DNA from: Promethearchaeia archaeon
GTDB lineage: Archaea; Asgardarchaeota; Lokiarchaeia; Sigyniarchaeales; SOKP01
DNA: 64,000 nt
Reading direction: 5' to 3'
NCBI GenBank assembly: GCA_046483985.1
Contig: JAWOCD010000022.1
Coordinates: 16-64,015 of the forward strand
Under the pieces are notes generated by a model. The model was not told the DNA's origin. It worked only from the letters and a program-made list of their open reading frames with translations, and ran no database searches. The translations under genes were made by a program, and so were the position numbers. This document shows positions 10,586 to 63,822 of this stretch, piece by piece (position 1 is the stretch's first letter; the number at the start of each line of letters is the position of its first letter).

Positions 10586-10611
10586 TTTTTAATCTCCTCA
10601 TTTATTATAAT

Positions 10612-32887: not shown

Positions 32888-32890
32888 GAT

Positions 32891-34156: not shown

Positions 34157-34519
34157 TTAAAACCATAATGTCCCGTCAGCTTCAAGTACTAAATCATTTA
34201 AGGTTGCTGCGCCGACAATCTTAACTCCTGGAATCAGATCAACTTTCTCCCAGCCCAACATTCTCTTAGAAGCCTCGCAAACTAAAATTTCAACTCCGAT
34301 ATCCAAAGCTTTATCGATCATTTTCTTAACAGAGGGAAAATCGCCTAATTTAATCTTTTCTGCGGTTCCAGGCTTTAGAATTTTTAAGCCCATTCCCAAA
34401 TAATAAACCGTAGCTTTGATATCCATTGCTTTAGCAGTTTGAGCCAACACTAAAGGAGAATACTGACGTGCTGGAGCCTCGCTTGTTTGTACATATAATA
34501 AATATTTGTTTTCCATCAT
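34157..34519 (-). CDS. DsrE/DsrF-like sulfur-relay family protein
   Basis: The 120-aa Rossmann-like protein shows the DsrE2-like pattern (LVLAQTAKAMDIKATVYYLGMG...LVCEAS). It is adjacent to a TusA gene. Confidence 0.6.
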   Translation of the reverse strand: MMENKYLLYVQTSEAPARQYSPLVLAQTAKAMDIKATVYYLGMGLKILKPGTAEKIKLGDFPSVKKMIDKALDIGVEILVCEASKRMLGWEKVDLIPGVKIVGAATLNDLVLEADGTLWF

Positions 34520-34529
34520 TTTCCACCTC

Positions 34530-34781
34530 CTAATTGATTATTCTAAAATAAAAGATAAATTCATTTTTTTCTTTCTTGAGATCTAATAATTCTGTACCAG
34601 TTCTTTTAGCCCATCGCTTAAAATCTTCTTCAGCTGCTGGATCGTCTGCTAAAACCTTTAAGATTTGTCCTTTTTCCAAGGTTTCAGAGGTATTTCGAAC
34701 TTCAAACAACGGTTCTGGACAAAAGAGTCCTCTGGTGTCTAACTCTTTATCAAATGCCTTTTTTTCACCTTTTTCGGTCAT
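34530..34781 (-). CDS. TusA/SirA-family sulfurtransferase
   Basis: LDTRGLFCPEPL carries the conserved CPxP motif. The length is 83 aa. Confidence 0.8.
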   Translation of the reverse strand: MTEKGEKKAFDKELDTRGLFCPEPLFEVRNTSETLEKGQILKVLADDPAAEEDFKRWAKRTGTELLDLKKEKNEFIFYFRIIN

Positions 34782-35056: not shown

Positions 35057-35959
35057 TTAAGGGAGTGTCTCGGAAAGAGGTTCATTTAGGCTCCCAGTCC
35101 GATAGCCTTCTAAATCGAGTGAGATATAGGTAAAACCTAACTTTTTGATTTTATCTACTATATCTGAATTCTTTAAAATTACCTGAAAATCATTTTTTTC
35201 AATTTCGATACGTGCCACTTCTCCATGGAATCGAACGCGAACTTGATGAATTCCTAAATCTTTAATTAATTGCTCTGCTTTATCAATTTTTTTAATTTTT
35301 TTTTGGGTAATTTTAACACCGTATGGGAATCTCGAGGATAAACAAGCTAAAGATGGTTTGTCCCATGTTTCTAAGCTCATCTTCTTCGATAGTGCTCTTA
35401 TTTCTTTTTTGGTTAATTGAACTTCCTTTAATGGACTTATAATATCCAGTTCCTCCAATGCTTTTATTCCTGGGCGATAATCTCCTAAATCATCGTAGTT
35501 TGTCCCGTCCAAAACATAATTTATTCTTTTTTTCTCCGCCAACTTTTTTATTTTTGAAAAAAGCTCTTGTTTACAGAAATAACAGCGATCCTTGGGATTT
35601 TTGACGAAATTTTGATTTTCCATCTCTTTTGACTTGATGATGATATGTTCGAAACCCCACTTTTTTGCTAATTTTTTAGTAAAGTCCAATTCATCCCTTG
35701 GAAAGGTAGGAGAGTTACTAGTAATGGCAATAACATTATCTTTTAGAATAACTTGGGAAACTCTTAGAAGAAAACTGCTATCAACCCCTCCGGAAAAAGC
35801 TATTGCGACTTTTTCCATTTTCTTCAAAATTTTCTTCAAATTCCTAAACTTTATTTGAGTCGTTTCCTTCATTTCCGTCATTCTCTGTATTGGAGTTAAT
35901 TTTAAATCTGATTTAAATTTAAGAGCAATATTTGCATTAAAAGAAAAATTATAGGACAA
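35057..35959 (-). CDS. PP-loop ATP pyrophosphatase of the LarE / TIGR00268 type (ATP-dependent sulfur transferase-like)
   Basis: VAIAFSGGVDSS is the PP-loop, and LACLSSRFPYG is the LarE-type Cys motif. The true start is probably an internal Met (MTEMKETT, about nt 35881). Confidence 0.7.
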   Translation of the reverse strand: MSYNFSFNANIALKFKSDLKLTPIQRMTEMKETTQIKFRNLKKILKKMEKVAIAFSGGVDSSFLLRVSQVILKDNVIAITSNSPTFPRDELDFTKKLAKKWGFEHIIIKSKEMENQNFVKNPKDRCYFCKQELFSKIKKLAEKKRINYVLDGTNYDDLGDYRPGIKALEELDIISPLKEVQLTKKEIRALSKKMSLETWDKPSLACLSSRFPYGVKITQKKIKKIDKAEQLIKDLGIHQVRVRFHGEVARIEIEKNDFQVILKNSDIVDKIKKLGFTYISLDLEGYRTGSLNEPLSETLP

Positions 35960-35971
35960 ATAACGAATTCT

Positions 35972-36964
35972 TCAAGTAAATTTTTCGATGTATTTACAAT
36001 ATGTGCAAGTTTTTCCATTACTACAAGGATAACCGCAGTTTTTGCAAAAATTGTAGTTTACTTGAGGTTTTATTTTGTCCCTGTTTTTATATAAGATTTT
36101 TGATAATCTTAAAAAACTCTCTAAAAGATTATATTCAATTTCAGGCACCAAATTTTTCAATCTTTGAATAATCTGGAGCACTTTTTTTCTCGTTATGGGT
36201 TCCTCCTCTCTGTAAGGACAATGAGATCGATAGTACCTGAGGTTTTTTAAATTACAATACAAGAAAATTTCCTCCTCGGGGATATGCATTAACGGAGTTA
36301 TTTTTTTTACATAATACTTTTTTAATGTTTTTGACCGTTCTCTAAAGATGTATTGATTTCCAATTAAATAAAACCGTTTGTATAAGATGTTCATAAGGTA
36401 TGTTTCGGCTATATCTGTCAGGTTATGACCCATGGCAAGAACGGTCCCCTTTAGTTCTTTTGCACCTTCATTAAGCAGTCGTCTTCTAATTATTGCACAA
36501 TAGTTACAAGAATATCTTTTATTTTCTTTACCTTTCATTGTTTTAATGATCTCGTCTAATGTCATTCCGACTCTTCTTCTGAACGAAATAATCTTATATT
36601 CTACATCTAATTTCTCACAGAAGGCCTTCGCGAACTCAACACTCTTGTCTCGATATCCTTTAATACCTTCATCAATGATTAAAGCAGTTATAGAATTTAA
36701 ATTGTCGTTATTAAGTAAAAGTTTATTTAAGTTGTAAAGCAAAGCAATTGAATCCTTACCTCCAGAGAGCCCAATGATCAATTGATCCTCGGGAGTCCAT
36801 AGTTTTGACCTTGAAATCATCCTTTTGATTCTGTTTTCAATGGATTCAATAAAACAACTTCGGCATAAATTACGGTCAGAATATCTCTGTTCAATGACTG
36901 GTGATTTCCCACATTGCGTACATTCATCTAACTTTAAATGAATTTGATAATTTGAACGATTCAA
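35972..36964 (-). CDS. TtuA/NcsA-family tRNA 2-thiolation enzyme (PP-loop, Fe-S dependent)
   Basis: There are N- and C-terminal CxxC...CxxC Zn fingers and the PP-loop GLSGGKDS. Cluster ligands are CNYCAIIRRR and SHCPY. Confidence 0.8.
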   Translation of the reverse strand: MNRSNYQIHLKLDECTQCGKSPVIEQRYSDRNLCRSCFIESIENRIKRMISRSKLWTPEDQLIIGLSGGKDSIALLYNLNKLLLNNDNLNSITALIIDEGIKGYRDKSVEFAKAFCEKLDVEYKIISFRRRVGMTLDEIIKTMKGKENKRYSCNYCAIIRRRLLNEGAKELKGTVLAMGHNLTDIAETYLMNILYKRFYLIGNQYIFRERSKTLKKYYVKKITPLMHIPEEEIFLYCNLKNLRYYRSHCPYREEEPITRKKVLQIIQRLKNLVPEIEYNLLESFLRLSKILYKNRDKIKPQVNYNFCKNCGYPCSNGKTCTYCKYIEKFT

Positions 36965-37009: not shown

Positions 37010-37396
37010 TTATGATTCTTTTTTCTTTTGGCGGTATTTTTCAACTGCTTCATGCAATCCATCAGCGGCTAAATTACTGCAGTGCATTTTAACTTGTGGT
37101 AATCCATCGAGCGCGTCTGCGACATTCTTTCTCGTTATCTTCATACCTTCGTCTAAGGTTTTTCCCTTTGCTAATTCTGTTATCATACTTGATGTTGCTA
37201 TAGCAGCTCCGCACCCAAAAGTTTGGAAGGAAATATCCTTAATGATTTCTTCTCCATTTTTTTCTTTAACTTTTAAATAAATATACATGAGATCACCGCA
37301 TACTGGGTTTCCAACTTCTCCAACTGCATCGGGATCTTTCATTTCTCCCATGTTTCTTGGGTTTTTGAAATGGTCCATAACTTTATCTGAATACAT
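37010..37396 (-). CDS. iscU: IscU Fe-S scaffold (second copy, stand-alone)
   Basis: GNPVCGD, FQTFGCGAAIATSS and MHCSNLA are present in 128 aa. Confidence 0.9.
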   Translation of the reverse strand: MYSDKVMDHFKNPRNMGEMKDPDAVGEVGNPVCGDLMYIYLKVKEKNGEEIIKDISFQTFGCGAAIATSSMITELAKGKTLDEGMKITRKNVADALDGLPQVKMHCSNLAADGLHEAVEKYRQKKKES

Positions 37397-37444: not shown

Positions 37445-38662
37445 TTAAACTTCTTTTTTCAGCGGGGACATTTTTCTAAGCCGTTCAATAACTGGAGGTA
37501 GTTTCTCTAAGAAAAAATCCACATCCTCTTCTGATGTAAATCTTCCTAATGTAATTCTAAGAGAACCATGTGCCTCTTCTGTCTCTAATCCAATCGCTAG
37601 TAGTACGTGAGATGCTTTTAACTCCTTTGAAGAGCAAGCTGATCCGGTGGAAGTTTCTATACCTTCCATGTCTAAACTTAATACCATTGACTCACCTTCA
37701 ATATATTTAAATCCCACATTGACGTTATTTGGAAGACGCCGAGACGGATGACCGTTTAAATAAGAATCCTCGATATTATTTAAGACGGTATCTATTATCT
37801 TATCTCTTAAGCTCTTTAATCTTTTTGCCTCTTCTTCCATCTTGTTTTCTGCTAATTCCGCTGCTTTGGCAAATCCTGCGATTAATGGTACCGCTTCGGT
37901 GCTAGGTCTTATTTTTCTCTCATGACCTCCTCCTTCCATTAATGGTTTAATGAATCTTCCTTGTCCCTTCTTCCTACCTCCGTTCCGGATGTAGAGTAAT
38001 CCTATACCCTTAGGCCCATAAATTTTATGACCGCTAACCGAAAGTAAGTCTATATTCATTTCATCCACATCAATGGGGATCTTTCCAAATGCTTGAACCG
38101 CATCAGTATGAAAAAGGATATCGTGCTTTTTTGCAATCTTTCCGATTTTTTTAATTGGTTGGATCGTGCCTATTTCATTATTAGCAAACATAACCGAGAT
38201 AAGAATTGTATTTTTAGTTATTGAATCCTCCAATTCCTTTAAATCAATTAATCCATTCCTATCTACGGGTAAATAGGTAACATTAAAACCTTGCTTTTCT
38301 AATTCTTCACAAGGATGTAATACTGCGTGATGTTCTATTTTTGATGTGATAATATGATTTCCTCTTTTTTTATTTTTATAGGCAACTCCTTTAATTGCTA
38401 AGTTATCTGCTTCTGTTCCTGAAGAGACAAAAAAGATATCATCTTTATCACTGTTAATAAGATTAGCAATTTTCCCTCTTGATCTTTCCATCACTTTTGT
38501 AGCCTTTTGTCCGAGGGAATGTAAACTTGATGCGTTTCCATAATTAGTTTTGAACTGTTTACATATTACTTTTATAACTTCTGGATCCATTGGAGTGGTA
38601 GCCGCGTTATCCAAATATATATAATGTAAATCTTTCAAATTCTTACCCTTTAAGATTAGCAA
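37445..38662 (-). CDS. iscS: Cysteine desulfurase (IscS/NifS, second copy)
   Basis: DNAATTPMDP, SGHKIYGPKGIGLLY (PLP Lys) and the active-site loop STGSACSS are present. Confidence 0.9.
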   Translation of the reverse strand: MLILKGKNLKDLHYIYLDNAATTPMDPEVIKVICKQFKTNYGNASSLHSLGQKATKVMERSRGKIANLINSDKDDIFFVSSGTEADNLAIKGVAYKNKKRGNHIITSKIEHHAVLHPCEELEKQGFNVTYLPVDRNGLIDLKELEDSITKNTILISVMFANNEIGTIQPIKKIGKIAKKHDILFHTDAVQAFGKIPIDVDEMNIDLLSVSGHKIYGPKGIGLLYIRNGGRKKGQGRFIKPLMEGGGHERKIRPSTEAVPLIAGFAKAAELAENKMEEEAKRLKSLRDKIIDTVLNNIEDSYLNGHPSRRLPNNVNVGFKYIEGESMVLSLDMEGIETSTGSACSSKELKASHVLLAIGLETEEAHGSLRITLGRFTSEEDVDFFLEKLPPVIERLRKMSPLKKEV

Positions 38663-38694: not shown

Positions 38695-38952
38695 TTAAAT
38701 GGTAGCCTCAAAAATACTTATTCTTTTATCATCATCGTCCTTATAGCTCCTTATAAAATGGGAATCTTTAAGCTTTCTTAGAGAGTATGCCACCGTCCGA
38801 TTTGGGAGAAGCGTTTCTTTTAAGATCTTTTGCCGATTCATGGGGCCATATTGTTTCAATAAATATAATATGAACTTACTTGAGGGAGCTAAAGAATACA
38901 ATTCTTCTTTTTCCTTTAGATCGGATATAATATACAAATCACTAATTATCAT
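38695..38952 (-). CDS. Small winged-helix (MarR/ArsR-like) DNA-binding protein
   Basis: The 85-aa protein has FILYLLKQYGPMNRQKILKETLLPNRTVAYSLRKLKDSHFI, which is HTH-like. It sits at the head of the iscS-iscU-ttuA-larE string. Confidence 0.5.
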   Translation of the reverse strand: MIISDLYIISDLKEKEELYSLAPSSKFILYLLKQYGPMNRQKILKETLLPNRTVAYSLRKLKDSHFIRSYKDDDDKRISIFEATI

Positions 38953-39124: not shown

Positions 39125-39688
39125 TTAAAATTTACCGCATCCATCACACTTCCCAGAAAGAAAAGCCTCACAATCTTCACAAACATTTTCACATTTACAT
39201 TCTTGACTCTCGTTGGTGAACAGCTTAACAGGCAAGAATCTTTCCCCCGGAAAACTGAGAGCGAAAAGAATCTGAGAGTGTAAAATCCCTTCTTTATTCG
39301 TAGGACCACAATGGTTTATGTATCTATGGAGAATATCCATATTTTGACCGACAATCCCCATAATTAAATCATATTGTCCAGAGATATGAGATAATAAAAA
39401 TACCCGGGGGCAATCGGTATAACCTTTAATAATTTTTTTCGTAACCTCAAAATTTTTTGTTTCTAAAAGAATATAACACGCTTTATAGCCTAAATTATCA
39501 ATATTAATATCCCCTTGAATTTTCAGAACTTTCCCCTCTTTTAATTTCACAATTCGCTTCTTTATTCCGGTATGGCTCATTGTTTCGTTGTTACTTTTAA
39601 CAATTTTATCTTTAAGGTCGGTTAAGCTTTCACGTCCATCTTTGAAAAGTTCCCTAATTATTTGTTTATCAATATCGTCTATATTCAT
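39125..39688 (-). CDS. Lrp/AsnC-family regulator with a C-terminal Cys-rich extension
   Basis: The N-terminal DIDKQIIRELFKDGRESLTDL is HTH_AsnC-like, followed by a RAM-like domain. The tail CKCENVCEDCEAFLSGKCDGCGKF contains 8 Cys. Confidence 0.7.
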   Translation of the reverse strand: MNIDDIDKQIIRELFKDGRESLTDLKDKIVKSNNETMSHTGIKKRIVKLKEGKVLKIQGDINIDNLGYKACYILLETKNFEVTKKIIKGYTDCPRVFLLSHISGQYDLIMGIVGQNMDILHRYINHCGPTNKEGILHSQILFALSFPGERFLPVKLFTNESQECKCENVCEDCEAFLSGKCDGCGKF

Positions 39689-39865: not shown

Positions 39866-40681
39866 GTGATAAAATTGAATTTAACCGAGGAACAAATTGA
39901 GAGATACTCTAGACAAATCGTACTTAAAGAAGTGGGAGGAAAAGGTCAAGAAAAATTATTAGATTCTACTGTGACTATTTTGGGATTAGGTGCTCTAGGC
40001 TCTCCTACTGCATATTATTTAGCTGCAGCAGGTATAGGCCGTTTAAGATTAATTGATTTTGACAACGTGGAACTATCTAACTTACATAGGCAAATATTGC
40101 ATTCCACTCGAAATATTGATAAAAAAAAGACTTCAAGCGCATACGAGAGATTAAAACAAATTAATCCGGACTGTGAAATAGAACTCGTTGAGAAGAGAAT
40201 CACCCCAAATAATGTAAAAGGGATTATAACAAATTCAGATTTTTTAATTGAGGGTTCTGATAATCTTCCCACCAAAATGTTGATTAATGATGCTTGTATT
40301 AATTTAGGAATACCCTTTACGATTGCTGGTGTACTAAGATTCCATGGGCAAATATTAACCGTAGTTCCTGAAGAAAAAACCACTTGCTATAGATGTTTGT
40401 TTGGAGGTAATGAAGAATCCTCCCAAGCGATGTCTTGTTCACGTGCTGGCGTAATCGGATTAATTCCAGGGGTTATGGGATGCTTTGAATCTATGGAAGC
40501 GATCAAATATATTTTAGATATGGGAGATCTAATAACAAATAGAATTCTGTATGTAGATTTACTGAAAATGAGTTTTAATTTCATCGATGTCCATAGAAAT
40601 AAGGGTTGCGAAGCTTGTGGAGATAAACCAAAGCATTTAATTTCAAATTATGACTACGGATTTGATAAATTATGTCTTTAA
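39866..40681 (+). CDS. E1-like adenylyltransferase (MoeB/ThiF/UbaA/TtuC family, no rhodanese domain)
   Basis: EEQIERYSRQI and ILGLGALGSPTAYYLAAAGIGRLRLIDFDNVELSNLHRQ (GxGxxG) are present, with Zn pairs CYRC and CEAC. I prefer the GTG at 39866 (MIKLNLTEEQ) to the listed TTG at 39782, which adds a hydrophobic non-homologous leader. Confidence 0.85.
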   Translation: MIKLNLTEEQIERYSRQIVLKEVGGKGQEKLLDSTVTILGLGALGSPTAYYLAAAGIGRLRLIDFDNVELSNLHRQILHSTRNIDKKKTSSAYERLKQINPDCEIELVEKRITPNNVKGIITNSDFLIEGSDNLPTKMLINDACINLGIPFTIAGVLRFHGQILTVVPEEKTTCYRCLFGGNEESSQAMSCSRAGVIGLIPGVMGCFESMEAIKYILDMGDLITNRILYVDLLKMSFNFIDVHRNKGCEACGDKPKHLISNYDYGFDKLCL

Positions 40682-40920
40682 ATAATTATTCAAAGAAGTT
40701 AGATATAAGGGGTAAAACGTGTCCTATGACCTTTGTATATACTAAGTTAGCTTTAGAGGATTTAAAAAAAGGGGAAATTCTCAAGGTTATTTTGGATTAT
40801 CCTCCAGCTGTGGAAAATATTCCGGAAAACAGTAAAAGACAAAGTTTGGCTGAGACTCTCAAGGTTAAGAAACAAAAATCCCGTTCAAATGAATGGGTAC
40901 TATTATTACAAAAAAAATAA
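40672..40920 (+). CDS. TusA/SirA-family sulfurtransferase (second copy)
   Basis: LDIRGKTCPMTF carries the CPxx motif. It overlaps the E1 gene by 10 nt. Confidence 0.75.
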   Translation: MSLNNYSKKLDIRGKTCPMTFVYTKLALEDLKKGEILKVILDYPPAVENIPENSKRQSLAETLKVKKQKSRSNEWVLLLQKK

Positions 40921-41125
40921 CATCTGTAAACGATGTGGAATTGGTTTCATAAGCAAAATTTGCAGTTATTTTTAAAAAGAACAAAATTTTTCATATCATG
41001 ATTAAAGAACTAATATCTTGAATTCTTTAAAATTTTAGGAGAATCAATTTTACAAAAAAAGCATTTCTATGCAGTTATTGCCACACAACGAGTGATTATT
41101 GACTTAAATTTTATTTATCAATTAA

Positions 41126-41824
41126 GTGGTGAATGGGATTAATATATACAAAAAAGTAAGAAAGAAAATTAATCTAAAATACTATTCAGTGGGTGTTAAA
41201 CTGATAACTAATGAAAATAAAGGGATTAATTCAAATAAGGATTTTAAAGTACCGAAAAATTCGCATAGGTACTGTGAATTTGTTAAAAGAGCTTCAGAAG
41301 GAGAATTTCTCAAAATTTCTAAAGAGAAATTATCTTGTGTAACTTCTCAAATAATGTTGGGGTTCAAGAAACCGAGAAAGATCAAAATGGATATGCGAAT
41401 GGATTTAGACAATCTTGATTCCGTTATATTATTCCCGCTGGATGATTTTCCAACTAAAAATTTTGATAGTATTGTGCTTCGAGTAAATCCAAAACACGCT
41501 ATGGATATTATCGAAGCATATCGAAAGGTATTTCATAAACCCTTAGAGGTAAATTGGGGGTTATATTCAGGTATTTGCAGCGAGATAACTGCTTCGGTTA
41601 TAAAAAATCAAGATATTAATTTTTCGTTTTTATGCTCTGGTTCGAGAATTTATACCGGATTTGATGATTGTGAATTAATGTGTGGTATCTACAATGCATT
41701 GGTTGAAAAGATATTCAAAAAACTAATTGAAATCTCTAATGAGAGAGAAATGGATCTTCAATTAGTTAATGAATTAGATAATTATGAAAATAAAAACTAT
41801 AATAAAGGCAAAATAGAAGAATAA
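41126..41824 (+). CDS. DUF169-like uncharacterised protein, tentative
   Basis: The size (~230 aa) and the pattern ...YSVGVKL...HRYCEFVKRASEGEF...LSCVTSQIMLGF resemble the DUF169 (COG2043) family as I recall it. Confidence 0.4.
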   Translation: MVNGINIYKKVRKKINLKYYSVGVKLITNENKGINSNKDFKVPKNSHRYCEFVKRASEGEFLKISKEKLSCVTSQIMLGFKKPRKIKMDMRMDLDNLDSVILFPLDDFPTKNFDSIVLRVNPKHAMDIIEAYRKVFHKPLEVNWGLYSGICSEITASVIKNQDINFSFLCSGSRIYTGFDDCELMCGIYNALVEKIFKKLIEISNEREMDLQLVNELDNYENKNYNKGKIEE

Positions 41825-41834
41825 AGAGGTAATC

Positions 41835-42677
41835 GTGTTGGAAGACTTTTTAAGATGCTTAGGATGTGGAAGAAAATTAGGGGATAAAGAAGGAAGACAC
41901 TACAATTATTGTTCAGAATGTCTTTTGAATTTAGAATTCCAGATCAATGATTTGGATATTGATACGATAAAAACTAACCTTCAAAAGATCTTAAATTTCT
42001 TTGTATCCGATGTAAATGCCGCATTTAATAAAGACCCAGCAGCTCATTCTCTAATGGAAGTTCTTACAAGTTATCCTGGAATTAAAGCGGTGTTATTATA
42101 TCGAATCGCGCATTTCTTTTGGGATCTTGATATGCCTTTTGTCCCTAGATATCTTTCAGAAGTGGGGAGAGAAAGTACGGGAATTGAAATCCATCCTGGG
42201 GCTCGAATAGGGAGCGACTTTTTTATCGACCACGGTGGTGGAGTAGTAATAGGAGAAACTGCCGAGATAGGGGATAATGTGACCATTTATCAAGGAGTTG
42301 TTTTGGGAGGTACAACTCTTGATCCGGTTAAGCGCCATCCTACTTTGGGTAATAATGTTGTTGTGGGGACGGGAGCAAAACTCCTAGGTCCTATTACGAT
42401 TGGAGACAATGTTAGAATCGGTGCAAATTCCGTCGTTGTAAAGGATATTCCTTCAAACTCTGTTGTGGTAGGAGTTCCAGGAAGGGTTATCTCAAGAGAA
42501 GGTGAAAAGATAGATAAAATAGATCTCAAACATGGGGATCTTCCCGACCCTTTATCTATTACCTTATCTACTTTAAATTCGAGAATAGAATTCCTAGAAA
42601 AAAAGATACTTGAAAGTAAGGAACAAAATAAGGAAGAAATAAAAATAGAATATGGTAAATATGGCGGTGGTATATGA
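41835..42677 (+). CDS. cysE: Serine O-acetyltransferase (CysE) with an N-terminal CxxC...CxxC extension
   Basis: DPAAHSLMEVLTSYPGIKAVLLYRIAH, GIEIHPGARIG and hexapeptide repeats are present. The N-terminus carries CLGCG...CSEC. Confidence 0.85.
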   Translation: MLEDFLRCLGCGRKLGDKEGRHYNYCSECLLNLEFQINDLDIDTIKTNLQKILNFFVSDVNAAFNKDPAAHSLMEVLTSYPGIKAVLLYRIAHFFWDLDMPFVPRYLSEVGRESTGIEIHPGARIGSDFFIDHGGGVVIGETAEIGDNVTIYQGVVLGGTTLDPVKRHPTLGNNVVVGTGAKLLGPITIGDNVRIGANSVVVKDIPSNSVVVGVPGRVISREGEKIDKIDLKHGDLPDPLSITLSTLNSRIEFLEKKILESKEQNKEEIKIEYGKYGGGI

Positions 42678-42805
42678 AGAATGCGGACAATTATAATGAT
42701 TATTGGGTCCAAATTAAAATTGATACAATTATTGCAAACATCTTTAAAAGACTTCGCTTCCCATTTTCTTATAAATTATTCTAAAAATTAAAGTCGTGAT
42801 TTACA

Positions 42806-43732
42806 ATGGTAAAAGTATATAGCAATATTATTAAGGCAATAGGAAATACGCCTTTAGTAAAATTTAACAGAATTACGGAAGATATTAAACCTAATATTTA
42901 CGGTAAAGTCGAAGCATTTAATCCAGGAGGAAGCGTGAAAGATAGAATTTGTATGGCAATGATAGAGAAAGCAGAAGAAAAAATAATAAAAAAAGACACT
43001 ACAATTGTTGAACCGACTTCCGGAAACACTGGAATCGGCTTGGCTTTAGTCTGCGCTGTGAAAGGATATAAACTTATCCTCACAATGCCTGAAAGCATGT
43101 CTGAAGAAAGGCGAAGGATATTAAAAGCATATGGTGCAGAATTAATATTAACTCCCGCAGAAAGAGGAATGAAAGGAGCAATCGAAAAAGCGGAGCAATT
43201 AAATGAAGAAAACGGAAAAGTTTATATACCTCAGCAATTTAAGAATGAAGCGAATCCCGAAATCCATCGGAAAACGACCGGAAGAGAAATTATCGAGGAT
43301 CTAGACGGCAAAGTGGATGGTTTTGTAGCGGGTATAGGAACTGGAGGCACTATTACGGGAGTAGGAGAGGTTTTGAGAAAAGAACTCGGGGAACAGGTAA
43401 AAATTTATGGAGTAGAACCAAAGAATTCCCCGGTACTTTCGGGAGGACAACCAGGATCTCATAAGATTCAAGGGATTGGTGCGGGTTTTGTACCAGATGT
43501 ATTGAACACTAAAATCTATGATGATGTAATCCAAGTTGAATCTGAGGACGCACGAGATACCTCAAGAAAATTAGCGAAATTAGAAGGTATTTTCGCGGGT
43601 ATATCTTCTGGAGCGGCTACTTGGGCAGCATTAAATATTGCTAATGAAGAATTTGATGAGGGAGAAAATATAGTTATCATCCTTCCAGACACTGGAGAAC
43701 GCTATTTAACAACAGATTTATTTAATCTCTAA
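42806..43732 (+). CDS. cysK: Cysteine synthase / O-acetylserine sulfhydrylase (CysK/CysM family)
   Basis: IGNTPLV, NPGGSVKDRI (PLP Lys), TSGNTGIGLA and GIGTGGTITG are present. Confidence 0.9.
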   Translation: MVKVYSNIIKAIGNTPLVKFNRITEDIKPNIYGKVEAFNPGGSVKDRICMAMIEKAEEKIIKKDTTIVEPTSGNTGIGLALVCAVKGYKLILTMPESMSEERRRILKAYGAELILTPAERGMKGAIEKAEQLNEENGKVYIPQQFKNEANPEIHRKTTGREIIEDLDGKVDGFVAGIGTGGTITGVGEVLRKELGEQVKIYGVEPKNSPVLSGGQPGSHKIQGIGAGFVPDVLNTKIYDDVIQVESEDARDTSRKLAKLEGIFAGISSGAATWAALNIANEEFDEGENIVIILPDTGERYLTTDLFNL

Positions 43733-43926
43733 ATATTTCTAATAGAAATAAGGATTTAATTAAATCAACGAAATAATCAATTTTAACAAAGTTTTTTTTA
43801 CTAAAAGATTCCAAAATTGGGTGTATTGATATTCAGCATCTATTAGATAACTATACAAATGTTAAATATTTTTATTCGGAAAAAGAATTTGGACTTGAAT
43901 CAAGTCAAATTTTACCCAATTTTAGA

Positions 43927-44946
43927 TTGGCATATGAAACTTATGGAGTATTAAATAAATCTAAGACTAATGCTATCCTAATTTTTCATGCTCTTTCTGG
44001 AAGCTCTCATGTATATAGTGATGATACTGAAATAGGCGGGTGGTGGGATGAAGTCGTTGGTCCAAATCTTCCTATTGATACAAATAAATATTTTGTAATT
44101 TGTGCTAACATGTTAGGAAGTTGTTATGGCTCGACTGGTCCCGCATCCACTAATTCTAAGACTAAAAAACCTTACGGACTTGAATTTCCCATAATTACCA
44201 TTCATGATATGGTAAAAGCAAATAAACTTTTGATTGACCATTTGGGAATTGAGAGTCTCTTAGCTGTTGTTGGAGGGAGTATGGGAGGGATGCAAGCGCT
44301 CGATTGGGCAATTAGTTATCCCAAAATTACATACGCCGTCATTCCCATTGCAACTGCTGCTTACGCTACTACCTTTAATATCGCCTTTAATGAAGTGCAG
44401 AGACAAGCTATTTTTTCTGATCCCAATTGGAACCAAGGAAACTATTATGATAACCATTCTCCTCCCAATCAAGGTTTAAGATTGGCTCGACAAATTGGGC
44501 ACATTACTTATCTCAGTGAGGAATCTATGAAGGAAAAATTTGGAAGAGATCTCCGACACAATCCGAAATTAGTTTTCCAATTTACCGAAGAATTTGAGGT
44601 AGAAAGTTATTTACAATATAAAGGATCTTCTTTTACAAAAAGATTTGATGCCAATTCGTATCTCTATTTAACGAAAGCAATCGATTATTTTGATATACGA
44701 GAAAACGGAAATTTAGCACATCCACTTTCCAATTTAGAAACTATACAATTTTTAGTAATATCATTTACCTCTGATTGGTTATATCCCACCACGCAGGCAA
44801 GGGAAATTGTATGTGCTCTAAAAGCAAATGGTATAAAAACGAGCTTCGTGGAAATTGATTATAATTACGGACATGATTCTTTCCTGCTTGATTGTAAGGA
44901 TTTCAAAGTGATTTTATCCAATTTCTTGGAGAATCTTGAATTGTGA
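43927..44946 (+). CDS. metX: Homoserine O-acetyltransferase (MetX)
   Basis: AYETYGVLN...NAILIFHALSGSSH, GGSMGGMQAL (nucleophile Ser) and the C-terminal YGHDSFLL are present. The conserved N-terminal block continues upstream of the listed TTG start (see findings). Confidence 0.85.
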   Translation: MAYETYGVLNKSKTNAILIFHALSGSSHVYSDDTEIGGWWDEVVGPNLPIDTNKYFVICANMLGSCYGSTGPASTNSKTKKPYGLEFPIITIHDMVKANKLLIDHLGIESLLAVVGGSMGGMQALDWAISYPKITYAVIPIATAAYATTFNIAFNEVQRQAIFSDPNWNQGNYYDNHSPPNQGLRLARQIGHITYLSEESMKEKFGRDLRHNPKLVFQFTEEFEVESYLQYKGSSFTKRFDANSYLYLTKAIDYFDIRENGNLAHPLSNLETIQFLVISFTSDWLYPTTQAREIVCALKANGIKTSFVEIDYNYGHDSFLLDCKDFKVILSNFLENLEL

Positions 44947-44958
44947 TGTGATAAAAAG

Positions 44959-45570
44959 ATGTTGCTAAGAACAGATTTAAAGATTATTTATACTCTAATA
45001 GAACCAAACTCTAAAGTCTTAGATTTAGGCTGCGGAGAAGGAGTACTATTATACGAGTTAACTGAAAATAAACAAATTGAGGGATTAGGGATAGAAATCT
45101 CGATAGAAAGGATAAAAAAGTGTATGGAATACGGGGTTTCAGTTGTGCAAGAAGATTTAAATAAGGGGTTAAAAGATTTTAAAAAAAATTCATTTGACTA
45201 CGTTATATTAAGCCAAACACTTGAGGAAATCGCCAAACCAGTATATCTTATCAAAGAAATGATGAGGGTAGGTCGGAAGTGTATTATTAGCTTTGAAAAT
45301 TTAGCCTATTGGAAGAATAGGATACGGTTTTTATTTACAGGGAGTTTGAGAGGGAATAACTCGAAAGGGAATAACTCGAAAAAAGATTTTTTATACAATA
45401 ATAAAAAGCAGCAGTTATTGAGCATAAACAAATTCCTTAGATTCTGTGAATATAAAGATTTTATTATAAGTAAAGAAATTTATCTAAATCAAGATACCCT
45501 CAATTTTGGAAAAATATTTCCTAACTTTTTCTGTAAAACATCTATATTCGTTTTAAAAGGAAAAGAATAA
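44959..45570 (+). CDS. metW: MetW-like methyltransferase-fold protein (partner of MetX)
   Basis: RTDLKIIYTLIEPNSKVLDLGCGEGVLL...FDYVILSQTLEE has typical MetW organisation. It lies immediately downstream of metX. Confidence 0.72.
   Translation: MLLRTDLKIIYTLIEPNSKVLDLGCGEGVLLYELTENKQIEGLGIEISIERIKKCMEYGVSVVQEDLNKGLKDFKKNSFDYVILSQTLEEIAKPVYLIKEMMRVGRKCIISFENLAYWKNRIRFLFTGSLRGNNSKGNNSKKDFLYNNKKQQLLSINKFLRFCEYKDFIISKEIYLNQDTLNFGKIFPNFFCKTSIFVLKGKE
45352..45381 (+). repeat. Perfect in-frame 15-bp tandem duplication (gggaataactcgaaa x2) inside metW
   Basis: Seen directly. It encodes GNNSKGNNSK. Confidence 0.9.
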
Positions 45571-45614
45571 ACATATTTACATAAAAAGAAATTTAATCCG
45601 AGGTATTTTACTTA

Positions 45615-46778
45615 ATGAACATCAATTGGGAAAATATACGAAAAAATCAATTTCCATCACTAAAAAATCAGATTCACATGAAAGCCGCTGGAGGATCCCC
45701 CATGTGCAAGTCTGCCTATAGCAAGGGCACAAAATATTTTAGGAATATTTATAAAAAGGGAGATATCTTCTGGGACCACTACTTTAAGGAAATGGAGGAA
45801 GCTAGAGAGTTGGTTGCAGATTATTTAAACTCGAATACAAATGAAATAAGTTTTCTAATTAACACATCCTCGGGTATTAATATCATATCCCATCTACTGA
45901 ATCAAGGAACTATACTTTATCCAGAGGGTGAGTTTCCCTCCTCAATTCTCCCCTTCAAGTTGAAGGATTTTAATTGCATAAAAATTAGATCGAAAAATAA
46001 GAAATATCGAGCCGAAGATATTGAGGAAACTGTTCATTCAAATCACGATTATTTAATCCAAAGTTACGTTCAATATCTCACGGGATTTAAGCAAGAATTA
46101 GGTAAAATTGGGAGGATTACCTACAAGAATAAAGTTATTTATATAATAAATGCGACTCAAGCCTTTGGTGCTTTACCTCTGGATGTTAAAAGACAAAAAA
46201 TTGATATATTAGTGGCATCTGGCCTTAAATGGGCGTGTTGTGGCTACGGAGCCGCCATTCTCTATGTTAAAGAAAAAATTCTCGAAGATAAAAACTTACC
46301 TTGTCTCAGTTGGTTGAGCGTGAGAAATAAGTTTGCAATGGATAATGATAATACTGATGTAATCAAACAAACAAAAGCAATGGACAGTTTTGGGGGTACT
46401 CCCAATTTTCCCGCTTTAATGGCATTAAAAGGAAGTTTAGAATTGATAAAAGATATCGGTGCGGGTGATATCAATGTAGGCATCAGAGAAATTTACAAGA
46501 GGATAAAATTTCTCACAAATAAGTTTATACGAGAACTTCAAGACCTGGGTCACAAAATAATTAGCCCCTTAGATTTAAAGTATCGTTCGGGTATAATTAC
46601 AATGCAGCATCAGAACGCGAAAGCGATATATAAGGAGTTATTAAAAAATAACATCCATATCTCACTTAGAAATTATCCCTCCTCCCAAAATAAGGATTTA
46701 TTACGATTTGCCCTCCATTACTATAACAATTTAGAAGATATCCGGAACGTAGTTTCGGTTTTAAAGAGGTGTGGATAA
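45615..46778 (+). CDS. Class V PLP-dependent aminotransferase / cysteine-desulfurase-like enzyme
   Basis: NATQAFGALPLDVKRQKIDILVASGLKWACCGYGAAILYV has the PLP-Lys in an S-G-x-K-W context, typical of the class V fold. Confidence 0.65.
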   Translation: MNINWENIRKNQFPSLKNQIHMKAAGGSPMCKSAYSKGTKYFRNIYKKGDIFWDHYFKEMEEARELVADYLNSNTNEISFLINTSSGINIISHLLNQGTILYPEGEFPSSILPFKLKDFNCIKIRSKNKKYRAEDIEETVHSNHDYLIQSYVQYLTGFKQELGKIGRITYKNKVIYIINATQAFGALPLDVKRQKIDILVASGLKWACCGYGAAILYVKEKILEDKNLPCLSWLSVRNKFAMDNDNTDVIKQTKAMDSFGGTPNFPALMALKGSLELIKDIGAGDINVGIREIYKRIKFLTNKFIRELQDLGHKIISPLDLKYRSGIITMQHQNAKAIYKELLKNNIHISLRNYPSSQNKDLLRFALHYYNNLEDIRNVVSVLKRCG

Positions 46779-46781
46779 AAA

Positions 46782-48452
46782 ATGAAAAGAGAGGTAAAAT
46801 CTCATAATTGGAGATTTCTTACCCCTATTGGAGGCTTCCACGGAGTTTCTGCTGTTTTTCCCAGATTTCAAGATATTATTGATTACGAAGAGGACCGATT
46901 TTCAGTTTACCAAGGTTATCCTAGATTTGTTACACATCCTGCTATAAGGAATTTGGAAGATCAATGGAAAGAAAAATTCGATGCAGTGAACGCTATAAGT
47001 TTCCATAGTTATCGGTCATCTATTTTCTTTTTGATTGATTACTTTTTCAGGAAAGGCGATAAGATTTACATCGACTCCAGATTAACTTCAAAAATATTCA
47101 CGCTTCTAAATCAAAGTTTTCCCGATATCTTATCTAAAGTAACGAAAGTATCTGAAGCAGATATTCTAATATTTAACAAACCAGTAACTCAAGTTAAAAG
47201 GTCTTTTGAAGATAAGATTCTAATTTCTCTATTGGACAACCCAATGGACGAAAAAGATTTCAAATTTAAAGGGGATTTCTTAATTTGTCATGATCCATTA
47301 AACGATATAGGAGTAATTTTGAAATTCAATGATCAATTCAACAATTTGACGCTTCTCCGAAGACATTGCGGATTTAATGTAAGTTCACGAAAAATCTGTG
47401 GAAATAATGAAACTCTAATTCGAGAAAAATCAAAACTAAAGGATCAATTGAAAAAGCAAATTACCCATTTGGAAAATGTTGAGACGAACTATTGTTATTT
47501 TTATCCCTCTGGCATGGCTGCAGTGTTCATATCGATTTTTTCACTTTTATCAAGCCAAAAGCCGAATTTTATTGGTTTAGGTTCTTTATATGTGGATACT
47601 CTAAAGATTCTAGAAAAATGGTCAGAAAAGTATGGTTTATCGAAGACAGACTTTATTCGTGATGCAATTGAGAAAACTTTAAAGGAACGTATTAGCGAAA
47701 AAACCGCAGGCGTTATTGTTGAAATTCCCTCTAATCCCTTAATCCAACTAGTAGATATAAAAGAAGTAATCAATACAGTCCATTTATATGGCGGAAAAGT
47801 GATTGTAGACAATACTATTGCCACACCTTATAATTTTAATCCATTTGATTATGGAACCGATATCGTAGTTCACAGTTCAACAAAATTTTTAAACGGGAAA
47901 AATGACCATATTGGAGGAATAATCATTACAAAGGAGAAAGAATTGGGTGAAAAAATTAGAAAATTTAATAATCTCTTTGGATTAGATATGGCATTCAATG
48001 ATATAAGGACATTATCTGAAAATATCAAGGGGTTCGAAAGACGGATGGAAAGGATTAATAAGAATACCGAAATCATAGCCAAATACCTAAATAATCATGA
48101 ATATGTGGGGAAGGTATATTATCCCTCCTTAGCTGATAATCCCGATCGGGAAATTTTGAAAAAATATCTAAAGGGAGGAAGCGGTCTTCTTAGTTTTGTC
48201 TTAAAAAATTCAAATATCGAAGTTGCACGTCAATTTTATAATAATGTTTTACCTCCCATTTTAAAAGGTCCTAGCCTCGGTTCAGAAAGAAGTTTGTTAT
48301 CTCCCTACGTAATGATGACACACTATAAATATTCCGAAACAGAATTAAAACATTTAGGGTTAAATCGCTATTTAATGCGTCTATCCGTGGGAACGGAACC
48401 TTTTGAAGATATTATATACAGCTTAAAGTATGCTTTAAATTCTTTAAAATGA
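46782..48452 (+). CDS. Cys/Met-metabolism PLP enzyme (MetY/MetB/MetC family) with a ~230-aa N-terminal extension that looks like a degenerate copy of the same fold
   Basis: The C-terminal part has YFYPSGMAAV, VVDNTIATPYNFNP and the PLP-Lys block HSSTKFLNGKNDHIGG. The N-terminal part has YQGYPRFVTHPAIRNLEDQW...AISFHSYRSS, which is paralogue-like and has no Lys block. Confidence 0.7.
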   Translation: MKREVKSHNWRFLTPIGGFHGVSAVFPRFQDIIDYEEDRFSVYQGYPRFVTHPAIRNLEDQWKEKFDAVNAISFHSYRSSIFFLIDYFFRKGDKIYIDSRLTSKIFTLLNQSFPDILSKVTKVSEADILIFNKPVTQVKRSFEDKILISLLDNPMDEKDFKFKGDFLICHDPLNDIGVILKFNDQFNNLTLLRRHCGFNVSSRKICGNNETLIREKSKLKDQLKKQITHLENVETNYCYFYPSGMAAVFISIFSLLSSQKPNFIGLGSLYVDTLKILEKWSEKYGLSKTDFIRDAIEKTLKERISEKTAGVIVEIPSNPLIQLVDIKEVINTVHLYGGKVIVDNTIATPYNFNPFDYGTDIVVHSSTKFLNGKNDHIGGIIITKEKELGEKIRKFNNLFGLDMAFNDIRTLSENIKGFERRMERINKNTEIIAKYLNNHEYVGKVYYPSLADNPDREILKKYLKGGSGLLSFVLKNSNIEVARQFYNNVLPPILKGPSLGSERSLLSPYVMMTHYKYSETELKHLGLNRYLMRLSVGTEPFEDIIYSLKYALNSLK

Positions 48453-48579
48453 GGGAAATTTCGATATCTGCTAGATTTGCATTTAATTTTAAATCAGATG
48501 AGTGAATTACATAAATAGAAATAAATAAATTGACCCCCGAAGATTTTTATATATCTCTAATTACAATTAATTACAATCT

Positions 48580-48867
48580 ATGAGAACTGTCAAGATCAAA
48601 TTTTTATCGTTGCTCAAGGACTTAATTGGATCTGAGGAAATTGAGCTTTCGATTCCGGAAAACTCCACGATAAAAGAACTATTAGAAGAATTAAATTCAC
48701 AGTATGGCGAAAAATTTAAAGATATTCTTTATGAGAAACCAAATAAGTTAAATAAGGGGATCCTTATTGGACTAAATGGAAAAAATATCCGTGATATTGA
48801 TAACTTAGATACAAAGATCGAAGCGGAAGATGAAATCACCTTTATGCCAGCGATTGCGGGAGGATAG
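48580..48867 (+). CDS. MoaD/ThiS-family ubiquitin-like sulfur-carrier / SAMP-like protein ending in Gly-Gly
   Basis: The 95-aa protein shows a beta-grasp pattern (VKIKFLSLLKDLIG...INGKNI...DEITFMPAIAGG*) and a terminal GG. Confidence 0.75.
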   Translation: MRTVKIKFLSLLKDLIGSEEIELSIPENSTIKELLEELNSQYGEKFKDILYEKPNKLNKGILIGLNGKNIRDIDNLDTKIEAEDEITFMPAIAGG

Positions 48868-48900
48868 TTAGCAGATATACTTATTTAATTTTTAAAAGAG

Positions 48901-49851
48901 GTGTTTATAATTAATAAGGAGGAAAGTAAAATAAATATCGGTCATCTTTCAACAGCATACCATACAAATTTTATTTTAATGCAAGAAAAAAAGTTAGCGG
49001 AGGATCTGAATAAAAAAATCACTTGGCATCAATTTGGTACTGGACCAGCTATGGTGCAAGCGTTTCAGAGAAATGAGTTAGATATGGGGTACATGGGATT
49101 ACCTCCCGCCATAATCGCCATTGAAAAGGGGATTCCGATTAAATGCGTTGCCGGAGGACATGTTGAGGGAACTATTATGGTGGCTCCTCAAAAATATAAA
49201 ACTTTTTCAGACTTTGGTCAAGATTTAAACAGATGTTTTTCCCAATTCGAAGGAAGCTCCATTGGCGTTCCCAGTAAAGGTTCTATTCACGACATTATCT
49301 TGAATTTTTATCTTGATAAATTCGAACTTTTTGAGAAAATTGAGGTTTTGAATTACGGACAGGCAGAATTTATAGCTTATGATATGCAACAGGGTATTTT
49401 AGGTGGTGGTGTGGGAACTCCTGCTTTAGCTGCTTTTTCTTATACTATATTAAATTCCCATATTATTATACCCCCGGATTGTTTGAGGAAGAATAACCCA
49501 AGTTATGGTATATTTTTTCATCAAGATATGATAAATAATCAACCTAAAGTTGTAAGATCATTCTTAAAACACCATAAAAGAGCATCTATTATGCTAAGAA
49601 ATTCCCCAGACGAAGCAGCAGAGTTGATAACAAAAAGTTTTCCCCTAATGAATAAAAAATATGTGAAATCTGTATTAGAAATCTCTCCAAAGTATTGCAT
49701 TGACCTACCAGAGGGATATATATCTTCTACTATGAAATTTGTGGATGATCTCTATGTTTTAAATTATATTAAGAAACCTTTGAAAGAAAATGAGATTTTT
49801 CTACTAGATTTTGTCGAAGAAGTTCATCCAGAACGCCACCACTATCTCTAA
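48901..49851 (+). CDS. NMT1/THI5-SsuA-like (type II periplasmic-binding-protein fold) protein without a signal peptide
   Basis: IGHLSTAYHTNFIL...WHQFGTGPAMVQAFQRNELDMGYMGLPPAIIAIEKGIPIKCVAG resembles NitT/TauT/THI5-like binding folds. No N-terminal hydrophobic leader is present. Confidence 0.5.
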   Translation: MFIINKEESKINIGHLSTAYHTNFILMQEKKLAEDLNKKITWHQFGTGPAMVQAFQRNELDMGYMGLPPAIIAIEKGIPIKCVAGGHVEGTIMVAPQKYKTFSDFGQDLNRCFSQFEGSSIGVPSKGSIHDIILNFYLDKFELFEKIEVLNYGQAEFIAYDMQQGILGGGVGTPALAAFSYTILNSHIIIPPDCLRKNNPSYGIFFHQDMINNQPKVVRSFLKHHKRASIMLRNSPDEAAELITKSFPLMNKKYVKSVLEISPKYCIDLPEGYISSTMKFVDDLYVLNYIKKPLKENEIFLLDFVEEVHPERHHYL

Positions 49852-53631: not shown

Positions 53632-53666
53632 TAAATCGATCATTAGTTATATAATAAAAAAATAAC

Positions 53667-54665: not shown

Positions 54666-54678
54666 TCAAAAGAGAATT

Positions 54679-55704: not shown

Positions 55705-55882
55705 ACAATTGTGAGTGGAATCATCTTATCATCTATCTATTTTGATTGAGGGCGAAATTCAAAAACATAATAGAAAAAAAGGGCAGTTCTCAATAAAACT
55801 TATTGAAAAATTATTTTTCATAAGTGTTACCTTTTAATCTTTATTTGAATATTACCGATATTGTCAAACAAATAATTATGAG

Positions 55883-63537: not shown

Positions 63538-63822
63538 ATGGGATACGAACTTGATAAAGGTGCTCATTCGGTGTATTCATTAAACTACCATTACATCTGT
63601 TGTGTAAAATCTCGAAGAAAAATATTCGATACCGATGAAATAATCAATAGATTAAAAGAAATTAATATATCGTTAGCGGAAAAAAATGATATTAAAATTC
63701 TTAATCAAGAAACCGATCTTGATCACATACACATTATATTCAAACCGAGTTATCTCTTGGTTACGACCGGTCAAGTTACATTAGATCAATTGAAAAAATA
63801 TGTTGACTCACAAGGTGAATAG
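63538..63822 (+). CDS. tnpA: IS200-type Y1 (HUH) transposase TnpA, abnormally short (94 aa)
   Basis: It has YSLNYHYICCVKSRRKIF, the HUH motif DHIHIIF, and the C-terminal KKYVDSQ (catalytic-Tyr region). About 35-40 residues normally found between the HUH motif and the C-terminal helix are absent. Confidence 0.7.
   Translation: MGYELDKGAHSVYSLNYHYICCVKSRRKIFDTDEIINRLKEINISLAEKNDIKILNQETDLDHIHIIFKPSYLLVTTGQVTLDQLKKYVDSQGE

Follow-up and report, generated by a model that had tools for sequence, protein, structure and literature searches.

A 64,000-nucleotide stretch of contig JAWOCD010000022.1 from the Promethearchaeia archaeon assembly GCA_046483985.1 (hereafter the window; GC content about 33-36%) carries a sulfur island of about 18 kb, which Pfam and NCBIfam profile searches place at 32.1-49.9 kb. 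The right half of this island, from 39866 to 49851, is an array of 11 genes that all lie on the plus strand, as seen both in the list of open reading frames (ORFs) and in the profile searches. It combines genes for a ubiquitin-like (Ubl) carrier protein and its E1-like activating enzyme with genes of cysteine and methionine synthesis. An earlier note on this DNA, made from the sequence alone, had proposed that they form a pathway in which a protein thiocarboxylate donates sulfur to cysteine and homocysteine. The genes of the array, including several dependent on pyridoxal 5'-phosphate (PLP), are the following:

39866..40681, plus strand: E1-like adenylyltransferase of the ThiF/MoeB/UbaA type (Pfam ThiF, E=7e-74)
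40672..40920, plus strand: TusA/SirA-like sulfurtransferase (Pfam TusA, E=2e-18), overlapping the E1 gene by 10 nt
41126..41824, plus strand: DUF169 protein (Pfam DUF169, E=8e-29), ending 10 nt upstream of CysE
41835..42677, plus strand: CysE serine O-acetyltransferase with the C-terminus ...GGGI (TIGR01172, 227 bits against a cut-off of 210.65)
42806..43732, plus strand: canonical CysK O-acetylserine sulfhydrylase (TIGR01139, 449.6 bits against a cut-off of 350.95)
43825..44946 (ORF with canonical start 43927-44946), plus strand: MetX homoserine O-acetyltransferase (PRK00175, 486 bits against a cut-off of 331)
44959..45570, plus strand: MetW (Pfam MetW, E=1e-50; TIGR02081, 178.7 bits, slightly below the cut-off of 189.5)
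45615..46778, plus strand: divergent class-V PLP protein, here AT5 (Aminotran_5, E=4e-27, and KYNU_C)
46782..48452, plus strand: long PLP enzyme of the gamma-family, 556 aa, resembling cystathionine gamma-synthase (CGS) (Pfam Cys_Met_Meta_PP, residues 214-552 only)
48580..48867, plus strand: Ubl, a beta-grasp carrier of 95 aa ending in PAIAGG-stop (ThiS, E=1e-13)
48901..49851, plus strand: cytosolic protein of the SsuA/TauA/Thi5 fold (NMT1_2, E=5e-18)

Most of what the earlier note had described here is borne out by the ORFs and the profile searches: the 11 plus-strand genes with their domains, the adenylating E1 overlapping a TusA, CysE and MetX/MetW as the enzymes that supply O-acetylated substrates (MetW being clear in Pfam), and the 95-aa beta-grasp protein of the ThiS/MoaD family that ends in Gly-Gly. 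The DUF169 gene (41126-41824) and the SsuA-like gene (48901-49851) were left undiscussed in it.

The long PLP enzyme is the most unusual member of the array. Its AlphaFold2 model (pLDDT 92.6) consists of an alpha/beta N-domain (residues ~10-210) followed by a complete CGS-like fold, and the PLP lysine K368 together with D343, Y270, R533 and S365/T367 is invariant in 59 family sequences. By sequence the catalytic part is nearest to CGS, methionine gamma-lyase (MGL) and cystathionine gamma-lyase (CGL); every NCBIfam equivalog falls under its cut-off, the best models being MGL and CGS, and the MetY model TIGR01326 gives 185.6 bits where 495 are needed. Of the two sulfhydrylase-fold enzymes that had been named at first, CysK is upheld, while the label 'MetY/MetB-like' does not hold for its MetY part.

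The N-domain (~210 aa) carries two invariant motifs, GGxHG and GYPRFVxHP, and is rare, with 31 cluster representatives among 1.84 billion proteins in a single-sequence search. Its profile matches N-terminal extensions of two enzymes in the PDB, BesB (E=3.4e-12) and CndF (E=3.3e-8). Moreover, BesB is the only structure to which Foldseek aligned the model as a whole (TMq 0.73 over 575 columns), while MGL and CGL reach about 0.57. The long enzyme thus belongs to a BesB/CndF-type gamma-replacement clade and not to MetY. CndF catalyses gamma-substitution on O-acetyl-L-homoserine (PMC11331486). Because MetX is encoded directly upstream, gamma-replacement on O-acetylhomoserine is most likely also the reaction of the archaeal enzyme, although its nucleophile is not fixed by sequence.

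Two other ideas about the N-domain were considered. A role in docking the carrier protein is weakened by its presence in BesB and CndF, which use small molecules, and a detectable duplication of the catalytic domain was rejected, hhalign giving a probability of 0.8%; a similar motif pattern in the two domains was noted by eye only and has no sequence support. Full-length homologues of both the long enzyme and the SsuA-like protein come almost entirely from metagenome-assembled genomes of Promethearchaeota/Lokiarchaeota and other Asgard archaea. A close archaeal orthologue of the long enzyme (53% identity) is found in locus L008 (7995-11641) without MetX or AT5, divergently oriented from genes for methylenetetrahydrofolate reductase (MetF) and near a gene for an Arf-family small GTPase. 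There, as in the differently arranged genome of L001, the long PLP gene is followed by a gene for an alpha/beta hydrolase of about 230 aa with a GFSMGG nucleophile elbow (L001 11672-12361, L008 11685-12383); this gene is absent from the window, and its product could be a thioesterase-type partner.

The kinship with BesB and CndF, both enzymes of secondary metabolism, raises the question whether AT5 and the long enzyme make some other gamma-substituted amino acid from O-acetylhomoserine, in the manner of CndF, LolC and BesB, homocysteine being made elsewhere. A class-V PLP partner beside a gamma-family enzyme also recalls LolT next to LolC. The genomic context speaks otherwise, as the family keeps company with primary sulfur and methionine metabolism (MetX/MetW, CysE/CysK, homoserine dehydrogenase, MetF and MetH), and the pair is conserved across whole lineages instead of occurring sporadically. 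We regard such a product as very unlikely.

AT5, whose gene lies immediately before that of the long enzyme, had been described as desulfurase-like, a view that we cannot maintain. All NCBIfam families score below their cut-offs for this protein, the desulfurase models far below, and none of its cysteines falls in line with the HHCA or SACS loop of 5b7s and IscS. AT5 keeps the PLP lysine (SGLKWAC) and has a conserved Cys three residues past it (KWAC). At the site facing the pyridine nitrogen (N1) of PLP it has Asn, where enzymes of fold type I carry a near-universal Asp, and the stacking His is missing. Activity as a C-S lyase seems chemically plausible for a protein of this kind.

To place these genes in a wider setting we collected 42 loci and listed, for each gene of the island, its homologues in them. 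Synteny is seen in at least 10 independent genomes, hence the arrangement is not due to chance. Seven Loki genomes carry the block MetX-MetW-AT5-long enzyme without variation. In Loki, E1 always overlaps TusA and the Ubl gene is always beside the SsuA-like gene, with CysE, CysK, IscS/IscU and two regulators found in the same island in shuffled order. The Ubl/SsuA-like pair abuts the Met block directly in the window, L004, L006 and L015. In L001 and L007 a co-directional array is headed by Ubl and runs Ubl-CysE-IscS-IscU...CysK-MetX-MetW-AT5-long enzyme.

Outside Loki the two sets of genes are found apart. In Bathyarchaeota the neighbours of the AT5-long enzyme pair are CysK, MetX, CysE and homoserine dehydrogenase; within up to 10 kb on each side, neither a Ubl gene nor one for E1 or JAB was found. 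One Myxococcales locus has AT5-long enzyme-MetX, and in the DNA examined there Ubl, E1 and JAB are likewise missing. AT5 adjoins the long enzyme as its upstream partner in Loki, Bathyarchaeota and Myxococcales loci alike. Conversely, Odin, Hod and Hermod have the conserved E1-TusA, Ubl, SsuA-like and regulator genes and no Met block, and an Odin relative possesses a Ubl-CysE-CysK array. Since the Bathyarchaeota and Myxococcales loci lack Ubl, E1 and JAB, the AT5-long enzyme set appears to be self-sufficient.

A simpler role for the long enzyme would be direct sulfhydrylation in the manner of MetY/MetZ, with sulfide (or methanethiol) acting on O-acetylhomoserine, AT5 serving an accessory or regulatory function and the Ubl module being unrelated. 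The intact gamma-family catalytic residues (K368, D343, Y270 and R533) and the MetX gene upstream are consistent with this, as are the L008 orthologue, which stands beside MetF and the alpha/beta hydrolase with no AT5, and the many bacterial members of the long-enzyme family that stand alone. Free sulfide is, moreover, plentiful in sulfidic sediment habitats. Direct sulfhydrylation nevertheless leaves unexplained the strict pairing with AT5 in Loki, Bathyarchaeota and Myxococcales and the pairing with JAB domains in bacteria (see below), and the sulfhydrylase models of NCBIfam score no better than those of CGS and MGL. On balance it seems unlikely.

The carrier module begins with the E1, which has two CxxC pairs and no rhodanese domain. 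Its ORF opens mechanically at 39782; judged by homologue length, the start would be the GTG at 39866, as the resulting 271 aa match homologues of 267-268 aa. All NCBIfam equivalogs, including UbaA, remain under their cut-offs, and the closest structures in the PDB are ThiF, MoeB and Uba4. A Cys lies one to four residues from the C-terminus in all eight Asgard E1s compared (the window at 40660-40681, L001, L007, L010, L015 and L038-L040), and we infer that it is the residue of a persulfide relay fed by TusA. The 10-nt overlap of the E1 and TusA genes is identical in the window and in the Odin (L038), Hod (L039) and Hermod (L040) loci.

The Ubl, encoded 128 nt downstream of the long-enzyme gene, scores 72 bits with the archaeal MoaD model TIGR01687 (moaD_arch; cut-off 49.5) and 52.3 with the SAMP1 equivalog, below the cut-off of 60. 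Its matches in the PDB are Ta0895, Pf MoaD and a SAMP1 homologue, and weakly also CysO (E=1e-3). The C-terminus PAIAGG-stop is identical in 10 Asgard loci. No MoaE or molybdenum cofactor (Moco) genes were seen among the window ORFs scanned, which leave aside about 15 ORFs at 4.8-8.1 and 13.7-24.8 kb. Archaeal Ubls have been tied experimentally to tungsten cofactor synthesis and to tRNA thiolation (PMC11323500).

Wherever a locus contains one of the two genes, the SsuA-like and Ubl genes are neighbours. Sequence identity of the SsuA-like protein among Loki, Odin, Thor, Hermod and Hod archaea is 58-64%. Residues H15, H21, C82, H87, E89, H130, C266, H309 and H314 are invariant. The AlphaFold2 model compared by Foldseek gives TM values of about 0.72-0.77 to SsuA and TauA, that is, a generic SsuA/TauA/Thi5 fold. 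A function as a Thi5-type synthase of hydroxymethylpyrimidine phosphate was rejected, given that Foldseek points to the generic fold and that, by manual alignment, K62 and H66 of Thi5 are apparently not conserved. A transporter component is also unlikely, with no signal peptide discernible by eye and no ABC-transporter genes among the scanned neighbours.

The cysteine genes appear to form an ordinary sulfide-type set. CysK scores 293 bits with the cysM model, under the cut-off of 394, and its closest PDB matches are sulfide-using CysK enzymes, including CysK1 of Mycobacterium tuberculosis (Mtb; E=4e-106); within the 60 top-ranked PDB matches listed, the carrier-dependent CysM of Mtb does not appear. 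The CysE relatives all end in Ile (GGGI, GDGI or DYQI), the residue that docks into CysK. By their sequences CysE and CysK are a canonical pair, with sulfide as the predicted donor.

In the adjacent MetX gene, a conserved N-terminus of about 35 residues is encoded in frame upstream of 43927, where there is no ATG, GTG or TTG, and this segment aligns with the MetX of L001. Translation probably begins at an ATT at 43825; the interval 43825-43927 implies either this non-canonical start or a sequence error. For the DUF169 protein, a homologue adjoins the long PLP gene in locus L010. The literature and STRING offer just a weak link of DUF169 to YedE and selenium and are uninformative.

The alternative that the earlier note put forward deserves closer attention. 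In the form considered here, IscS and TusA would load sulfur onto the E1-adenylated Ubl, and the thiocarboxylated Ubl (Ubl-COSH) would be the nucleophile for the long enzyme, converting O-acetylhomoserine via Ubl-homocysteine to homocysteine, and/or for CysK, with the product released by a hydrolase encoded elsewhere or by direct hydrolysis of the thioester. The parts list stands: a rhodanese-less E1 coupled to TusA, with a GG carrier, is the component set of row 4e of Iyer et al. 2006 (PMC1779556), in which it is tied to sulfur assimilation and O-acetylhomoserine sulfhydrylase. Together with a gamma-family enzyme beside the carrier, it also matches HcyS/HcyF/MetY of Wolinella. Several features of gene order agree with this alternative, namely the position of Ubl 128 nt past the long enzyme, the Ubl/SsuA-like pair abutting the Met operon in L004, L006 and L015, and the Ubl-CysE(-CysK) arrays of Odin and of L001/L007; the weak similarity of Ubl to CysO points the same way.

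A difficulty lies in the release step. No JAB domain was found in the 64 kb of the window or in about 15 archaeal loci by a JAMM motif scan and a hidden Markov model built from four JAB domains (best E=3.9). In Wolinella the release role belongs to HcyD. In the Mycobacterium system the same role is that of Mec+, which is needed for product release (PMC3227635), so that the argument that a JAMM protease can be dispensed with because the Ubl already ends in GG fails. Iyer et al. 2006 further noted that JAB is never present in thiamine or Moco ThiS/MoaD operons and is typical of amino-acid and assimilation types (PMC1779556). By this criterion the Asgard module looks like a cofactor or tRNA type, and yet it is persistently surrounded by genes of Cys/Met metabolism.

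Bacterial relatives of the long enzyme give a different picture. A SAR324 member of the long family, with the same N-domain motifs, has an N-terminal Prok-JAB fusion, and its gene is preceded by a ThiS-like gene (ending GG-RCAA) and a MoeZ-like ThiF-rhodanese E1 (L021 7885-11767). The JAB::long-enzyme fusion is conserved in 44 SAR324-type proteins (44-99% identity). In another bacterium a JAB gene is followed by the long enzyme, then by an HTH/methyltransferase gene and then by MetH. In a Spirochaete, the genes opposite the long enzyme are a CysM-like one, a JAB one and one stop-to-stop ORF with ThiS, ThiF and rhodanese, which is either a true fusion or a run of adjacent genes. Besides L021, relatives linked to Prok-JAB were noted at L042 6518-13471 and L024 233-5579.

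Because of these JAB fusions and neighbours and the accompanying ThiS-like, MoeZ-like and MetH genes, the long-enzyme family can evidently, as far as gene context tells, make use of a JAB hydrolase together with a protein thiocarboxylate, its product feeding methionine synthesis. The SAR324-type fusion is a candidate for a new kind of carrier-protein-dependent homocysteine synthase. As partners of the long enzyme, AT5 on the one hand and JAB/Ubl on the other exclude each other, which fits two alternative ways of sulfur delivery and homocysteine release.

Applied to the archaeal island, a carrier-fed synthesis of cysteine or homocysteine has the component set and the bacterial JAB relatives on its side. 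It is opposed by the missing JAB, by the sulfide-type CysK and the CysE with its CysK-docking tail, and by the pairing of the archaeal long enzyme with AT5 instead of JAB, in Bathyarchaeota and Myxococcales without any Ubl. Three other Asgard phyla, moreover, have the Ubl module with no Met genes, and the N-domain, being common to the small-molecule users BesB and CndF, is no signature of carrier docking. Ubl-COSH as the nucleophile is possible, in our estimate, though on the doubtful side. A more complete version, in which E1-TusA would thiocarboxylate the pre-matured Ubl with no need of JAMM, the BesB/CndF-type long gamma-synthase (with AT5) and/or CysK would use the sulfur, the SsuA-fold protein would be a new relay component and the JAB-fused SAR324 relatives would represent the bacterial version and a third type of thiocarboxylate-dependent homocysteine synthase, seems doubtful.

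The left half of the island contains further genes of sulfur transfer and two regulators, all on the minus strand:

39125..39688, minus strand: Lrp/AsnC-type HTH regulator, 187 aa (weak Pfam and NCBIfam matches)
38695..38952, minus strand: small MarR-type regulator, 85 aa (Pfam MarR, E=3e-7)
37445..38662, minus strand: NifS/IscS cysteine desulfurase (TIGR03402, 540 bits against a cut-off of 531)
37010..37396, minus strand: IscU scaffold (NifU_N, E=2e-48)
35972..36964, minus strand: NcsA/TtuA-like tRNA 2-thiolation enzyme (PP-loop and TtuA_LIM_N; NcsA 178 bits, below cut-off)
35057..35959, minus strand: LarE-family PP-loop sulfur transferase (TIGR00268, 341 bits against a cut-off of 150)
34157..34781, minus strand: sulfur-relay pair of a second TusA (34530-34781) and DsrE (34157-34519) (Pfam)
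32090..34084, minus strand: second NifS-like gene (32891-34084) and a NifU_N fusion (32090-32887), forming the left edge of the island (Pfam)

The Lrp/AsnC-type and MarR regulators co-occur in most Loki loci of sufficient length and also in the Odin, Hod and Hermod loci. A shared operator motif was sought in the intergenic regions, and only AT-rich low-complexity words were obtained. In the Odin and Hod loci, too, there is a DsrE gene, located after that of the MarR regulator. The NcsA/TtuA-like protein is a possible established client of the Ubl; a homologue was not found in any other locus, so that it is beside the module only in the window.

Taking these observations together, we favour the view that the island assembles separable modules that are co-located, with homocysteine made from O-acetylhomoserine and cysteine and with the carrier relay not being an obligatory donor for cysteine or homocysteine; we would give this a probability of roughly 0.4. 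Joint control of the modules probably lies with the conserved regulators of the Lrp/AsnC and MarR types. CysE and CysK would fix free sulfide onto O-acetylserine, their domains being clear and sulfide the presumed donor, and MetX/MetW would make O-acetylhomoserine. The long enzyme may then couple O-acetylhomoserine with cysteine to give cystathionine, whose C-S bond would be cleaved by AT5 to yield homocysteine. In the carrier module, sulfur would pass from the IscS persulfide to TusA and on to the E1-bound Ubl-adenylate, and the resulting Ubl-COSH may mainly serve thiolation (of tRNA or cofactors) or some reaction of the SsuA-like protein. Separable modules provide roles for all genes of the four-gene block except the enigmatic MetW, and they account for the clusters without Ubl as well as for AT5 and JAB excluding each other.

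Several observations weigh against separable modules. With the Asn-for-Asp replacement and without the stacking His, AT5 is at best a putative beta-lyase. The bacterial relatives of the long enzyme are fused or adjacent to JAB and accompanied by ThiS-like, MoeZ-like and MetH genes. The Ubl/SsuA-like pair abuts the Met operon in three of about seven distinct Loki arrangements, and Ubl heads an array with CysE in Odin and in some Loki genomes. Finally, NcsA/TtuA, the obvious alternative client of the carrier, stands beside the module nowhere but in the window. A supply of sulfur from the carrier to cysteine and homocysteine is plausible rather than demonstrated.

Scans of the window for tRNA and Rfam elements found none. 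Beyond the island, two neighbouring genes for the D-component of 2-hydroxyglutaryl-CoA dehydratase (HGD-D; 9296-11775) are consistent with amino-acid fermentation. To the right of the island, three radical-SAM genes in a row are followed by a DUF6448 gene (52516-56413), with a metallo-beta-lactamase-fold gene upstream, and close to the right end of the window there is a fragment of an IS200-like Y1 transposase (63538-63822, 94 aa).

Little is known of how archaea incorporate sulfur into cysteine and methionine, a gap of greatest consequence for the Asgard archaea, the lineage closest to eukaryotes. The uncharacterised long gamma-family PLP enzyme and its class-V partner offer a tractable lead within a primary methionine operon. 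A second lead is the E1-TusA-Ubl-SsuA-like module, persistently found beside Cys/Met genes and related, on the prokaryotic side, to the Urm1/Uba4 sulfur relay. A third comes from the JAB-fused bacterial proteins, numerous in marine SAR324, which suggest that homocysteine synthases dependent on a carrier include a type not known before. Should the carrier supply amino-acid synthesis with sulfur in the absence of JAMM, the known mechanism would need revising; if it does not, the island is an ordinary, well-organised sulfur regulon with two unusual transsulfuration enzymes.

Among known systems, the island resembles HcyS/HcyF/HcyD/MetY of Wolinella succinogenes and row 4e of Iyer et al. in having a GG carrier, a rhodanese-less E1 with SirA/TusA and a gamma-family enzyme presumably acting on O-acetylhomoserine. 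It differs from them in lacking JAB/JAMM (in the window and the archaeal loci) and sulfate-reduction genes, in a carrier that is already mature, in a PLP enzyme that is of the long BesB/CndF type with a class-V partner, and in the SsuA-like protein as the constant neighbour of the carrier. Similarities to the Mtb CysO/MoeZ/CysM/Mec+ system are the closeness of the Ubl gene to cysteine genes, the weak resemblance of Ubl to CysO and the Ubl-CysE-CysK array of Odin. The Mtb system, however, relies on an O-phosphoserine-dependent CysM where the island has CysK and CysE (O-acetylserine), and the island E1 has TusA in place of a fused rhodanese and no Mec+. The MetM/MetO system of Streptomyces (Hasebe et al. 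2024, as far as the GapMind 2026 account describes it) indicates that carrier-dependent homocysteine synthesis is an established kind of pathway. In the same account MetM has a threonine-synthase fold, uses O-phosphohomoserine and needs Mec and MoeZ, whereas the island enzyme belongs to the type I gamma-family and its substrate is presumably O-acetylhomoserine.

With the archaeal SAMP/UbaA and Thermococcus Ubl systems, which act in tRNA thiolation, Mo/W cofactor synthesis and protein conjugation, the island shares a MoaD/SAMP1-type carrier, an E1 of the UbaA/MoeB kind and, at a distance of 3 kb, an NcsA/TtuA-like gene, but the SAMP1 and UbaA equivalogs fall under their cut-offs and the adjacency of NcsA is not conserved, while CysE/CysK and Met genes recur. 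Like BesB and CndF, the long enzyme has the homologous N-domain (GxxHxVS...GYPRFxxHP...HTGxxxSSR) followed by a CGS-like catalytic domain, and CndF uses O-acetyl-L-homoserine. Those two, at about 20% identity, are enzymes of secondary metabolism in actinobacteria and fungi, while the context of the island is primary Cys/Met metabolism, and the archaeal N-domain has an extra insert of about 100 aa compared with theirs. The logic of the components has been known since 2006, and three carrier-dependent systems for cysteine or homocysteine are characterised. As far as could be found, the pairing of a long BesB/CndF-type enzyme with a class-V partner in a primary methionine operon, the Asgard-wide E1-TusA-Ubl-SsuA-like module and the SAR324 JAB fusion appear to be undescribed.

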